DNA of 64,000 nt from Eledone cirrhosa (lineage: Eukaryota), in assembly GCA_964016885.1 (NCBI GenBank), contig OZ024744.1, positions 36,890,001 through 36,954,000 of the forward strand, written 5' to 3'. A program made the position numbers and the translations under genes. A model generated the notes under the pieces. The model made no database searches. It had not been told where the DNA came from and saw only the letters and a list, made by a program, of their open reading frames with translations. This document shows positions 32,691-58,272 of this stretch, piece after piece (position 1 is the first letter of the stretch; every line of letters starts with the position of its first letter).

Positions 32691-33024
32691 GCGGACTGCG
32701 CGTGGACCCCTATTTACTCACAGTAATGATTGATGGGGAGAGCGAGAGAGACGGAGGCGATAACAGTGGGAGTTTGGTTCCTTTGTGTTCGGTCCTGTTG
32801 TTTATATATGTATATATGAGAGAAATAGTCTAACAGTTGTTTCTTGTACAGTAAATTTAAGGAAACTAAAACAATAATAAATATTTTTCCAACTTTTGGC
32901 AAATGGCCAGCTATTACCTTAGTGCATTACTGGTACTTCATTTCATAATAATTGTTTTTACTTTTGGCACAAGACCAGACTTCATTTCATAATAATAATA
33001 ATAATAATAATAATAACAATAATA

Positions 33025-33206
33025 ATTGTTTCTACGTTTTGGTACAAGGCCAGCAATTTACCAGTGCATTACTGGTATTTTATTCTATCGACTCCGTAAG
33101 GATGAAAGGCAGAGTTAACCTCGGCGGGATTGGAACTCAGAATGGCAAGGGCCGTAACTCTATGCATCAACGCATAGCGTCCGACCCTTTAACGATACTG
33201 CCAATC
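33025..33206 (-). mobile_element. SINE copy flanked by TAA tracts on both sides
   Basis: Homologous to 16993-17156. Confidence 0.85.
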
Positions 33207-33207
33207 T

Positions 33208-33284
33208 AATAATAATATAATAATAATAATAATAATAATAATAATAATAATAATAATAAGAAGAAGAAGAAGAAGAAGAAGAAG
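33208..33284 (+). repeat. (TAA)n then (GAA)n tract
   Basis: Direct reading of the sequence. Confidence 0.95.
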
Positions 33285-52900: not shown

Positions 52901-52921
52901 TAATAATGTAATAATAATAAT

Positions 52922-55900
52922 GGTTTCTTTATTGGCATAAGGGCTAACACGAAGAAAAACATTAGAGACGGCACAGAACAGACAGGACGATACAAAGTGG
53001 GTTTTGGTCGTGTAATCAGGTTATAACAAAATCGGGCTAGAAATAAATAAAAAATCAAACAACAAGAATTCCCCCAAAAGAAGGAAACCTCCGAGGGTCA
53101 CTCGTGGCGAAAACCACACGAAAAAGACCACAACAAGCCTGACCACCAGGACAAGCGCTCTATCTCAGTTTTCCGACTCCTCAGTCTACAGGTGCATACT
53201 CAGAGCGGGCCCGTTCACTCGGACCAGACTCGCCACTTTTACCCACCATTCAACAAATTTAGACGGCCTCTCCACCCTGATTTTCGCATTCAAGTGAAAC
53301 TTGAAAAATTTAATCAGGGATTGGCCAAAGAGGAAAGTGTCCGTCTTGAAACCTTTCAACCTTGTCCACCACACAAACTCTTTCGCCATGGCCACCAGGT
53401 AGATGAAAACTGCTTGCCCTTCCTCCTCTTTAAAGGAGGATGGCGGGGCTATCTGCACAATAGACTCAGTCGATAAACGGATACGTCCGTCACGCGACAG
53501 CATCCGTTCGACATATCTCCGCAAGTCAGCAATCCTCGGGCACTGAACGAGTGCGTGCAGGATTGTTTCGTCGCCCTGCGCGCATCTCGGACTGGCTAGA
53601 CTGACAGCACATCCGTGCCTGTAGAGCTTATCCCGAACCGGCACCACTCTGAAAGTTCTCTTGAAGAGAGCGAACATCTGATCGTCTTGGACGCCCAGGG
53701 ACTCCCCGAGCACGTCGTCGCACTTTCTCCCCACTAGCCCTCTATAGCACGCCAAGGAGGATGTTCCACCGATACTAGTGCCCAGCTGTCGAGGGCGGTC
53801 AGCGCTTGGAGACATTCCAGCTTCCAAGCGCTAACCCTCGGTCTTTCCCTGATCGAGGAAGTAACTCCGTCAAGGAGACGAGCTGAGGGAAAGCGCGTCT
53901 GGCAAATGACGACCACACCTGTTCACCGTCAAGGAAGCTCCAGAGATGTCACAGCCTCAGCGCATGTTTGTGCATCATCAGCCACGGCATGCCTAATCCT
54001 TCATGCAACGGGTGTTGACAGCAAATGAATCGTTTGACCATGGGAGCACGTCCGTTGCACACAAAGCGGAAGAGAAGGTGCTCCATTTTGGTCAGAGTTG
54101 GGCCGGGACAAGGTACGACGGTGAAGCGGTAGCAGATGACGGACGCTATGTACACATTTGATACCTCCGCCCGACCTTTCAGAGACAGCCTCCCCTCGGA
54201 CCATTTCTGGGTGAGGGAGGCCACCCTGTTAGTCACCTCGCTCCAGTTTTTCTCCATCTGGACCGAACCAGACCCCGAGCACATTAACATGCCTTTCCGT
54301 CCAGTGCCCCACGACGCTGTCGAACGGTATGGACATGCCTCTCCAGGTGCCGAATTGTAAGCCCACCGACTTTTCCTGGTTTATCTGTGCTCTTGTCACC
54401 ACTTCGTATTCCTTGAGTGCGGTGCCGAGCATCGGGACGTGTTTGGTGATTGACACTAGCACGGTGACGTTGTCGGCGTAAGCCGACATGGATCTCGCGC
54501 ATCGTCTCCAATTAGTGCAGTAACGGCCTTAGGGCCAGTACGTACAAGAGGGAGGAGAGAAGGCAACCCTGGCGGACCGAGCGCATGATGCTGAAAGGCT
54601 GCGACAGGTGACCATTCACCCTCACAATCGAGAAGATGTCGCTGTGCATTGCAGCAATCCAGCCCCTAAAAACGGTCTCGAAACGCTCAGGTACCGAAGG
54701 TCGATTCTATCAAATGCTTTAGATTGATCCAAATTGATCAAGATTCTTAACCACCCTCTCTATGATGTATCGCATGATATGGAGATTGCCGTGGATGGAT
54801 CTGTCCTGAAGGGCGCATGTGTGCGCATCTACCAGATCACCGACGACAAGCTCCAATCTATTTGCTAACACCTTGGCCAACATCTTAAACTCTCCGTTTT
54901 GCAGAGTTATGGGCCTAAAGTTGTCTATAACGTCCCCCTTGTTCGGGTCTTTTTTCAGCTGCGGCACCGCTCCCTGGCTTACAAAACTAGGAATGCTCCC
55001 GTTCTGCTGCCAGTTGCAGTAGACATCTGCCAAGAGGTCGCCAAACAAGTCTGGCATATACGCATAAAGCACGTAGGGCCGACCATCCAAACCAGGCGGT
55101 TTACCCCTCGTGCAATCAGTCATCGCTTCCCGTATTTCACCTGCTGTTATCGGCTTTTCGCAGCACTGCGCTGCGTTCGTCGAGAGCCGCGGCAATCCAT
55201 CGAGGTATGCACCGAAGTCCATACTCCGACCGGCCCGCCACCGATCCTGAACAATTGAGCAAAGTGCTGTTGAAAAGCCGCACACATCTGCTCGGGTTCG
55301 AGCAACATGCGCCCGTTTTGATCTGGCAAAGATCGAATTGAGGACTTGTTGCCACGTCGCACCTCCACCACCCGGGCCCATTGAACGGCTTTCGTCACCT
55401 CGTGCCTTGGAGCACGTGCTCTAGCTCTGTCAATGCTTTGCGTTGAAAAATTGGTCGAGTGCCAATCTCGCCGTAAGTACGTCGGTTGCGATGCTTGTCC
55501 TAAACGCATCTTCTAGCTTTCTAACTAACTTTCCCTCTACTCTATATTCCTCTATCACTACTCCTTTGATAAACCTTATCGATTCTACTCTAATAGCCCT
55601 TTTCAGGGTAATCCAACACCTGTTGTTTACGATCGCACCCGTCAACGCACGCTTAAATGATTCGCTAATCCGTTCTCTGTAAGCTTTGCGCGCCGGGAAC
55701 GACGCGTTCAGCTTCCAGTAGCCGGGCCCTTGTCTATCGAGTCTATCTAAGTCAACTTCACCGATCACAAATTTGTAGTCGACTACATTAAATTGTGGAC
55801 AATCTACGCTAGCCTTATCTGTTTCCCTACAGAATACCCTATCTAAATATGATCTGGATGACCCGATGCGATTTGCCCATGCCCACATTGGCACATTCGG

Positions 55901-58260
55901 ATAATCCAGTCTATAACTGTCATACAGTTCAAAAAGCCTGAGCAGGTTGTTGAGGCTTTTACACCCTCCTGCCCTCTCTACTAGCCCCACATAATCCCAG
56001 CGTGAAAGATACCATACCAGTGGCCCACTAACGCTAAAGACCGGGACGTTCCAAGAAAGGTCTCTAGACATCTGAAGAAATCTGGCCGTCCTGCTCCTGT
56101 TGGGGCGTAGACAGCTGCTAGCCTGAAAGCATTGCCTTCGCTGCGGGTCAAGTCCAGCACCACCGTCTTACCTTCTGGGTCTAGGAAGATGTCCGGTATC
56201 GCGAGATCCAAGCCTCTCCAGAAAAGCACTGCCACCCCTCTCCCCGATCCTGGGAGGCTGGGAGATGCATATACATCGTAGCCGCCGAGGATCGGTGCGA
56301 AGGCTCGTGCTTCGGAGATTCTGGTCTCGCTGATTGCCACCACATCTATGTTTACTGACCTGAGATCGTTGAGCAGCTAACCCTGCTTCCAAGATGACCC
56401 CATGCCACGTGCATTTATACTGCCTATTTGGATGACCATGTTGGATGAGAAACGGGGTAAGTGAGAAGGGATCACTTAACCTGATCGTGTGGTGAAGGGA
56501 CAGTAGAACCGTCTCTTTGGCTGGCCAAGGGTGTTTCAAGATGAAATTCGGTATATATCCTCTTGGTAACCGATCCCCTGATGTCTCCAACTGCGCTGGG
56601 GAATTTTTCCTTTAAAAGTTTGTAATGTTCAATTTTGACATCAATGATGTTTATGTTTTTCGGGAGAGTTCTTGGTGTTGGTAGGGTGTAGTAGTTTTTT
56701 CTGTGATGTCTGTGTGCTGCTTTATATATTGTAAGAGTTCTTTATTTGCCATGTTTACGGCTGTGTACTTTTTGGGGGTGGGGTGATTTTGTTGCTGTTT
56801 TCTTGTTGTTGCTGTTGGGTGTGTGTGTTTTGTTTTGTTTGCAATGTTGGTGATGCTCGGGGTGGTGTGGTTGTTGTTGGTGGTGATGCTTGTGGTGGTG
56901 ATGCTGATTGTGTGGTGTTGCTGCAAGTCTCCTTGCAACCTTTACTCCTTTTTGTTTGCTTTCGCTTTTGGAGGGTGAATCTAAAGGTGTTTTCTCTTTT
57001 TTGTTTTATTGTGGCAGACCGTTTACCACTTCCCTCCCGCCTCATACACTATGTCGGATTCCGTGGCGTCTGGGAGGGGTATGAGCTCCGGCGATATTGC
57101 CGCCGGGGTAGCTACTGCGACTGTTTGTGTTGCCGCCACTGCTGCCGCTGTTTTAGTTGTCCGTGGCCTTGGTATAAGTGCCACGGACGTTGCCCTGCTA
57201 TTCACCATGGAAAGGTATTCAACCTCTGTTGCCTGCCCTGCTCTTGGTAGCAGCGAATCAGGCGTCGAAAGGAGGGGGTCCCTCTTCTTGGCTGACTTCT
57301 GCCCACAGAGATAGCACTTTAGGAGCCTTCATGCCACGCTTATAGGGGTTCTTCCTCGAGGACTATGATATCTGGTATGGCCTCGATGAACTCCTGGTCA
57401 GTTTGTATTAGCATTTGCATGCCAATTCCTGACCAGTTCTCTCTTCCCATTCTCTGTATTTGCAGTATGGTGGTCTTCTCCTCGATTCCAGCAATTTCAG
57501 ACGCGGCCAGCCAAGGTATGGGCACGTCTGGCGGGACCTGGGTCAGTGTGACCCTCACAATTTTCTGCCCGCAGTAGGAGGGCACCAAAACTCGTCACTC
57601 TTTAGGGTTTCCAAAGAGTGAGACTTCGCCTCTTGGGGGGTGGCGAAAAGTACATCCACTGCGGCGTACTCTTTGCTTCGGGTGATGTGGGATTTGCGCG
57701 CCCAGACACACCCCAAGTCTTTTTGGATTTGAGCCTCCGTGGCTCTCTCCACCCGACGTAACATTTTCCTTACGGTGCGGTAAGTCACCCTGCGCTGCTG
57801 GTCTTTGAAGAAATCGGTTGAAGGTTTCAGCGAAACTCTATTGTCCTTTCTTGCCCCCTTGGCTCTTGCGACTGCCATCTCCTCCTCCGTGACTAGCACT
57901 GTCTCTATATTTCGGGCCACACCTGTGAAAGAAGTGGCCCTTTTTCAGCGGCACCATTATTGCTGCCGTTGCTGCTGCTACTGGCCTTTTTATTGGTGCT
58001 GTTGCTGTTGCTACAGTTACAAACGGTGTTGTTGGTGTTGTTGCTGTTATCACTGTTGTAGTTGGTTGTGTTTTTGGTGCCACCACCGTTGTTGTTGTTT
58101 TCGGTGCAATTTGTATTGTTGCTGTTGGCCAAAAAAGCCCAAATATTATACTTTCCCCTACTTTCCCTTACACAACAAGAAAAAATTGAACAACACGTAA
58201 TTATAACAGGTAAATAAAGCGACTTACTGCGACCGTGCCAAAATGATGTCCGAACATACC
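52922..58260 (-). mobile_element. Tx1/L1-clade element (copy E), full-length, degenerate
   Basis: ORF1 pieces at ~56470-58130; ORF2 ATG near 56439 gives MVIQIGSINARG; GYWKLN, QGCLLS, YADN; TTA tracts at both ends. Confidence 0.9.
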
Positions 58261-58272
58261 AATAATAATAAT

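Follow-up and report, generated by a model that had tools for sequence, protein, structure and literature searches.

Dong-type and Tx1-type retrotransposons chained along one TAA microsatellite in Eledone cirrhosa, with a fixed polarity for each clade

A chain of nine elements on one TAA repeat

How do retrotransposons of different kinds come to lie end to end along one simple repeat, with each clade facing in one direction only? This question is raised by a 64,000-nucleotide stretch of the Eledone cirrhosa genome (contig OZ024744.1 of assembly GCA_964016885.1, positions 36,890,001 to 36,954,000; hereafter the window), in which nine elements are contiguous, head or tail, along a (TAA)n microsatellite at 33027–58262. 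They comprise a short interspersed element (SINE) and two sorts of long interspersed element (LINE), namely Dong-type copies with a predicted restriction-like endonuclease (RLE) and Tx1-type copies with a predicted apurinic/apyrimidinic endonuclease (APE). The chain is probably a pile-up of separate insertions on one (TAA/TTA)n tract, with a polarity that likely derives from nicking of opposite strands by the Dong RLE and the Tx1 APE.

The chain was delimited by tandem-repeat, open reading frame (ORF) and self-alignment scans together with inspection of the sequence, and its members are given in order in Table 1. All four Dong-type copies lie on the forward strand, and all four Tx1-type copies and the SINE lie on the reverse strand. 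An earlier note on this DNA had described nine elements joined end to end by 20 to 75 bp of repeat, and this description is borne out, with TAA-based spacers of 19 to 78 bp, among which (GAA)8 occurs twice and an A11 run once. The same note had stated that no element is nested in another. This is true within the 33027–58262 chain, but elsewhere in the genome SINEs do sit inside Dong or Tx1 copies (loci L203, L207, L220 and L226). The ORF scan found the reading frames of all Dong and Tx1 copies in the window to be broken. By self-alignment, the four Tx1 copies of the chain represent three distinct families with about 67 to 77% DNA identity, whereas DongA and DongB share only 35% protein identity and the third, DongA-like copy is about 89% identical to the other DongA copies.

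Table 1. Positions of the chain members and their spacers, and of a second array, in window coordinates.
Feature	Positions	Strand
Left (TAA)n tract, 9 pure plus degenerate units	32990–33026	+
SINE, near full length, Tx1-like 3′ tail	33027–33206	-
Spacer, (TAA)~18 then (GAA)8	33207–33284	+
DongA copy 1, 5′-truncated; reverse transcriptase (RT), CCHC and RLE region, frameshifted	33285–35972	+
Spacer, Dong tail plus (TAA)6; tail-to-tail Dong/Tx1 junction	35973–36004	+
Tx1a, full length (ORF1 plus APE-RT-zinc finger ORF2), broken frames	36005–41831	-
Spacer, (TAA)n with single TTA interruption	41832–41856	+
Tx1b, full length, broken frames	41857–47675	-
Spacer, (TAA)9(GAA)8; head-to-head Tx1/Dong junction	47676–47729	+
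DongA copy 2, 5′-truncated, truncation point differs from copy 1	47730–50788	+
Spacer, Dong tail, (TAA)8, A11	50789–50837	+
DongB 3′ fragment (second Dong lineage)	50838–51530	+
Spacer, (TAA)6	51531–51548	+
Tx1a 3′ fragment, 381 bp, 5′ truncation directly abutting TAA tract	51549–51929	-
Spacer, (TAA)13	51930–51969	+
DongA-like 3′ fragment with internal (GA)83	51970–52898	+
Spacer, degenerate (TAA)n	52899–52920	+
Tx1c, full length, broken frames	52921–58262	-
Right (TAA)4 tract	58263–58274	+
Second array, repeat flipped: patchwork Tx1(+), DongB(-), DongA(-) twice, scrambled DongB(-), SINE(+)	1–17170	

Neighbouring elements belong to different families or are truncated at different 5′ points. 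Moreover, wherever the window holds a second copy of a member's family, the 3′ end closest to that member is found at another locus, and the best window copy ranks only 10th to 36th. Judged by sequence identity, neighbouring chain copies have separate origins, and because closer kin of each tested copy lie elsewhere, the chain grew by separate insertions, as the earlier note proposed when it suggested that each insertion leaves repeat on both sides. Identity to the nearest relative is 98 to 99% for five inner members and 90 to 94% for the SINE, the DongA-like fragment, Tx1b and Tx1c, the latter values being lower bounds since the comparison pool is enriched for DongA and Tx1a. This difference suggests that the chain grew over time, with older members towards its edges.

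Several smaller features accompany the chain. Two more SINE 3′ fragments lie to its left (32873–32989) in the same orientation, and the (GA)83 run at 52117–52279 has grown in a GA-rich stretch that encodes the zinc knuckle of the DongA-like fragment. Runs of (GAA)n following a TAA tract are present in the window (33260–33284 and 47706–47729) and at L151, L157, L158, L168, L212, L217, L226 and L227. Among 17 such runs, 11 lead into a Dong 5′ end, five into unidentified sequence and one lies inside a tract; the Dong 5′ ends behind them mostly start at a GAA-like microhomology. These runs could have arisen either by slippage during 5′ joining or from a duplicated compound repeat.

Polarity and junctions across the genome

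The 3.0-Gb genome was searched for the ends of these families, and the best 40 candidates were scored of 419 for the DongA 3′ end, 446 for the Tx1a 3′ end and 2117 for the Tx1a 5′ end, with the window's own copy left out of the counts. TAA follows the DongA 3′ end in 29/29 cases, at least three TTA units follow the Tx1a 3′ end in 28/29, and full-length Tx1a 5′ ends stand behind TTA in 29/29. The phase in which full-length 5′ ends meet the tract is constant.

To these counts we added 10-kb loci fetched around 39 DongA and 39 Tx1a copies that had been picked by their 3′ ends alone. The 5′ junction lies at TAA in 38/39 DongA copies, comprising 14/14 that are full length (one with a degenerate repeat) and 24/25 that are truncated, with three Dong junctions placed by eye. 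For Tx1a, the 5′ junction lies at TTA in 34/39 copies (27/27 full length, 7/12 truncated), and the same is true of 9/9 Tx1b 5′ ends (two degenerate). None of the 5′ junctions of the 39 DongA and 39 Tx1a copies lies on the opposite-strand repeat. Because 5′ junctions are also found in the repeat, it serves as the target and is not merely the tail of each element. The earlier note's view that both clades share one repeat target is thus upheld genome-wide.

Two of the 78 anchored loci overlapped others and were dropped, leaving 76 non-overlapping loci in which polarity was counted, the anchors' own ends included. Among the ends that adjoin a tract, all 203 Dong ends are at TAA, and all 138 Tx1 ends and all 30 SINE ends are at TTA. 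Neighbouring pairs face opposite ways when they join Dong to Tx1 (64/64) or Dong to SINE (10/10), and the same way when they join Dong to Dong (49/49), Tx1 to Tx1 (16/16) or SINE to Tx1 (10/10). A background of 60 evenly spaced 10-kb samples, 600 kb in all, was supplemented by a further 190 kb of SINE and Tx1d loci. The 600 kb contain 11 LINE ends at tracts, all of which obey the rule (7/7 and 4/4). Because only 0.9% of the background bases have a tract of at least three units within 30 bp, chance is excluded as the origin of a repeat-flanked array. Each clade therefore has a fixed polarity at both of its ends that is general across the genome, at the near-total frequency for which the earlier note had proposed a check.

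A cruder count had returned four apparent violations of polarity, but all involved tracts in which TAA gives way to TTA midway, and they disappeared when the adjoining run was read. Such switches within a spacer occur at L070, L157, L201 and L204, where each neighbour keeps its own rule; at L070, a Dong and a Tx1 copy face the same way across the switching tract and both conform. Target-specific Tx1 families have been defined as those in which more than 20% of flanks share the target (PMC4494074). The Tx1a and Tx1b fractions given above, and the 5/9 for Tx1c 3′ ends considered below, all lie beyond this value.

The Dong and Tx1 families together fill roughly 23 of the 600 kb sampled, as a rough sum of match lengths. 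Eight of the 15 background tracts of at least five units touch a Dong or Tx1 end (seven are empty, five are occupied on one side and three on both), which fits a simple model wherein each insertion splits a tract. A LINE lies beyond the 3′ tract of 47/76 anchors compared with 11/30 background tract sides (Fisher p=0.03), or with 11/46 when 4-unit tracts are added (p=7e-5). Young copies therefore cluster somewhat more than tract density predicts, relative to a small background sample. The clustering that the earlier note proposed to check is thus present, but the excess is modest.

Endonuclease classes, target units and the SINE

Intact ORFs of both clades were taken from copies elsewhere in the genome. 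The Dong protein (P0001) is encoded by a single intact ORF of 1130 amino acids in genomic copy L153 and matches the RVT_1 domain (E 1.6e-22). It carries a CCHC knuckle of the form C-R-I-C-x8-H-x4-C, with R lying between its first and second C, followed by RPDL...DVACP and a PD-(D/E)xK region. Its best match of solved structure is R2, and a weak second stretch aligns to the R2 endonuclease region (stretch E 0.08); a domain search of P0001 found no Exo_endo_phos (APE) domain. R4/Dong elements are described as having knuckle spacing CX2-3CX7-8HX4C, an R that stands between C one and C two, and a C-terminal RLE (PMC5678591). The element studied here resembles R4 Dong in its single ORF with RT, its CCHC knuckle, its C-terminal PD-(D/E)xK region without APE and its TAA microsatellite target.

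The Tx1 ORF2 protein (P0002, 1139 amino acids) has an N-terminal APE (Exo_endo_phos, E 3e-14), RVT_1 and a C-terminal zf-RVT, and its best match of solved structure is L1 ORF2p (E 3e-52). Remnants of Tx1 ORF1 carry a C-x2-C-x4-H-x4-C zinc knuckle, so that an ORF1 with zinc knuckle is combined with an APE-RT-zinc finger ORF2, as in the Tx1/L1 group. The homologs returned by the searches with P0001 and P0002 include no named R4/Dong reference and no named Tx1 reference, respectively. The Dong label is therefore a probable one, based on architecture and target; the second family tests as L1-group, and we take it to be Tx1. On these domain and motif assignments, Dong possesses an RLE and Tx1 an APE, which agrees with the earlier note's claim of two unrelated endonuclease classes.

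For a short stretch of the Tx1 protein there is a match of 64% to a gene model of Octopus sinensis, and in Octopus vulgaris the LINEs with recent activity include Dong-R4 and L1-Tx1 (PMC13282606), according to a text that contains neither the word "target" nor the word "nested". Relatives of the Tx1 protein in metagenomes are distant (mostly 23 to 33% identity), and a tract of at least four units is present at 0/80 of their loci. Pieces of the Dong and Tx1 families also occur, at low depth and without junction information, in read data from three other organisms.

No 5′ region is common to Dong and Tx1 beyond one low-complexity match. The 5′ untranslated regions (UTRs) of DongB and DongA are alike (83% over 361 bp; L243:4031-4700 compared with window 8300-9368). 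Because this similarity far exceeds that of the proteins, exchange of a 5′ module between the two Dong lineages is likely. A comparable swap within Tx1 may account for a Tx1a variant (L192:1995-8001, L214, L229, L290) whose ORF2 and 3′ end are about 95% the same as Tx1a and whose 5′ UTR and ORF1 are nearer to Tx1c.

A related element, Tx1d (about 60% RT identity), lies between the two arrays at 19460–23570 and is not at TAA. At most of 30 Tx1d loci the 3′ end is followed by TATC or related repeats, which also precede several truncated copies. As the repeat beside Tx1d is (TATC)n and not (TTA)n, this Tx1 lineage has more than one target unit. Other Tx1d-like families, at about 75%, are present in L235, L283 and L290.

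The SINE departs from what the earlier note had assumed, namely that it is a member targeted to the TAA microsatellite. None of 29 other SINE copies has a (TTA)n tract of at least four units on either side, and the SINE is therefore not microsatellite-specific. Its 3′ end is followed by ATT in 132/152 copies. Outside tracts, 47 copies have exact target duplications of 8 to 21 bp (median 12), 44 of which start with ATTA. Immediately ahead of the duplication, 44/47 copies have C or T, as against 56% for ATTAT sites of the background (p=1.7e-8), a share that rises to 41/42 once five copies located behind another SINE tail are dropped; A occurs there in 3/47 copies compared with 29% in the background. 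The site of the SINE is thus a short Y|ATTAT. Two Tx1a copies in imperfect tracts, at L223 and L209, are flanked by duplications of this form that measure 18 and 17 bp, respectively.

When the SINE tail is scored against the LINE 3′ ends, it reaches 31 for Tx1c, 26 for Tx1b, 25 for Tx1d, 18-21 for Tx1a and 15 and 6 for Dong, against a null with a mean of 6 and a 99th percentile of 19, the top scorers of which are other SINE tails. The SINE, which has 57 matches of at least 100 bp in the 600 kb, lies directly behind the Tx1c 3′ end at 5/9 loci. Tail and duplication consensus together point to Tx1 proteins as the likely carrier of the SINE. A search of one SINE copy for a tRNA-like head gave no Rfam match up to E 5. 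We presume that this SINE resembles those of octopus. The available texts of PMC4824008, PMC4758252, PMC9115989 and PMC5678591 name neither a Tx1 partner for an octopus SINE nor an octopus Tx1 target. In crocodilians, SINEU is likely mobilised by Tx1-Mar, with which it shares a target (PMC4494074); unlike that case, the link proposed here is drawn from the 3′ tail and the duplication consensus.

Strand choice, alternatives and known systems

In target-primed reverse transcription, the target duplication starts at the first nick. If this model applies here, the Dong RLE would nick the TTA strand and prime reverse transcription there, such that Dong reads with TAA, and the Tx1 APE would nick and prime on the TAA strand, such that Tx1 reads with TTA. 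The duplications of the SINE and of the two Tx1a copies suggest that the Tx1 machinery cuts 5′-ATAAT^R-3′. Because a duplication begins at the first nick, this site should be on the primer strand, and ATAAT^R does occur on the (TAA)n strand and not on (TTA)n. Each insertion would leave repeat at both sides, turning one tract into two, so that a chain could go on growing. The SINE, riding on Tx1 proteins, would need only Y|ATTAT, would adopt Tx1 polarity within tracts and would provide a new site with its own tail.

These steps can be extended into a bolder scheme, which we offer tentatively and regard as somewhat less probable than its negation: a self-feeding system of three parties, in which SINE and LINE tails seed ATT sites, the RLE and APE clades multiply these from the two opposite strands, and fresh copies favour the inner spacers of existing chains. 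About half of long TAA tracts would then be junctions of mixed chains, and sister Tx1 families would have retuned one endonuclease (ATT versus ATCT). If this scheme is true, those sister families form a natural series for mapping target choice.

A number of observations weigh against pile-up with opposite-strand nicking. Scoring the best 40 of 419 to 3921 candidates favours young, query-like copies. The 5′ junction lacks a tract in five of 12 truncated Tx1a copies, the older Tx1c has at least three TTA units at the 3′ end in only 5/9 other copies, and 1/5 SINE ends in control loci is followed by TAA (L114). The clustering comparison has a background of only 15 long tracts. Strand choice is deduced from the target-primed model and the SINE duplication consensus, and the cut-site consensus comes mainly from the SINE, whose Tx1 partner is itself deduced. 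Against Tx1a, the SINE tail reaches no more than 18-21, and a first test with a single-copy SINE tail was weak (shuffle p 0.03-0.07 for Tx1b/c), with DongB scoring equally. Finally, no read or contig piece spanned 50600–52110 or 35700–36300 (four runs each), although mapping skips repeat spacers.

This last point bears on whether the array could be an artefact of assembly, joined at TAA tracts, or the product of tandem duplication of a few elements. Misjoining at a tract would likewise preserve polarity. Even so, we consider this explanation highly improbable, as junctions of these types are seen again at dozens of loci spread over many contigs, neighbours are of different family or truncation point, tested copies have closer kin elsewhere, full-length 5′ ends meet the tract in a constant phase, and the spacers are shorter than 80 bp. 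An equally remote prospect is that the repeats are mere tails of the elements and that the chain reflects passive accumulation in a permissive region. All three kinds of element do end in repeat, and the SINE is dense everywhere at the frequency noted above. Yet repeat is present at the 5′ junctions of truncated copies (24/25 for Dong and 7/12 for Tx1a) and in head-to-head tracts, compared with the 0.9% background, and the related Tx1d between the arrays is not at TAA. The passive view is largely refuted by these 5′ junction counts.

A more serious alternative, though still an unlikely one, is that both clades land in the repeat while polarity is set by the 3′ tail of the RNA (UAA for Dong; AUU for Tx1 and the SINE) pairing with the nicked strand, with endonucleases that nick A/T-rich DNA on either strand. 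Indeed, the tail of every family runs straight into its own repeat, and Tx1d ends in TATC, its flanking unit. Pairing of tail and target has been discussed for SART1Bm and R1Bm (PMC7265360), and an interrupted TTA variant located just before the Tx1a 5′ end at three loci (the window, L065 and L073) fits a repeat carried on the RNA. However, the base outside the SINE duplication would face the A of the commonest tail, yet it is C or T in 44/47 copies and A in only 3/47. Because this base is not selectable by in-register tail pairing, an endonuclease preference is favoured. An exchange of endonucleases between TRAS1 and SART1, cited in PMC7265360, likewise shifted the target.

Parts of this arrangement have precedents, and the idea is less unprecedented than the earlier note implied, given TRAS1/SART1, Keno/Utopia and R1 tandems. 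Dong of Bombyx mori, DongAg and DongBg, all of the R4 clade, target the TAA microsatellite (PMC3812793). Unlike known Dong, two lineages here have the target in common and similar 5′ UTRs, despite their divergent proteins, and are interleaved with Tx1. One cited review places Dong among APE elements, whereas the Dong protein here has an RLE and no APE. Microsatellite-specific APE elements include Kibi at (TC)n, Koshi at (TTC)n and crocodilian Tx1 families at (TTCC)n/(TTTC)n (PMC4494074, PMC3812793). Like Kibi and Koshi, the elements in Eledone are Tx1-type and microsatellite-specific, but their unit is (TTA)n, or (TATC)n in Tx1d, and an RLE clade uses the target as well.

Insertion in opposite directions into one short repeat is known for TRAS1Bm and SART1Bm in silkworm (TTAGG)n, where the TRAS1 endonuclease nicks a T-A step (PMC7265360). 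Both of those elements are R1-clade APE elements confined to telomeres, whereas the present pair combines RLE with APE on a dispersed repeat. Keno (Tx1 clade, APE) and Utopia (RLE) share one site in U2 snRNA genes (PMC4640811), but their 3′ flanks are identical, such that they share an orientation, their target is a gene rather than a microsatellite, and mixed chains are not described in the available text. Tandem dimers of the transposable elements R1, jockey and P arise in Drosophila by double insertion, through site preference and target duplication (bioRxiv 10.1101/158386); the chains reported here differ in mixing clades in opposite directions. The literature searched, which had Repbase, supplements and most subscription journals outside its scope, contained neither (TTA)n or (TATC)n as a Tx1 target nor mixed Dong/Tx1 chains.

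The findings add TTA to the list of targets of Tx1-type elements and bring together, in a dispersed microsatellite, two themes already known: elements of opposite polarity on a single repeat, and a single site used by two classes of endonuclease. They also suggest a carrier for an abundant SINE. With intact young ORFs of both clades and sister Tx1 families that have different units, the roles of endonuclease and RNA tail can be directly tested. Such chains risk being mis-annotated as single chimeric repeats.

The array at 1–17170, which extends 5.1 kb upstream of the window, keeps the polarity rule with the repeat flipped, as the earlier note had stated, but it is less tidy than claimed. Its Tx1 copy at 1–3059 is a patchwork, and the pieces of its DongB at 14037–16924 are shuffled and include 390 bp in inverted orientation at 15850–16239. 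We ruled out that this array is an inverted duplicate of the 33 to 58 kb chain, as its members and their order differ. Elsewhere in the window, a 213-amino-acid open frame with no Pfam match spans a tandem repeat with a period of about 75 bp (63256–63897), and region 26176–29251 holds local direct and inverted duplications of 200 to 520 bp, about 94 to 96% identical, among (TA)n runs.

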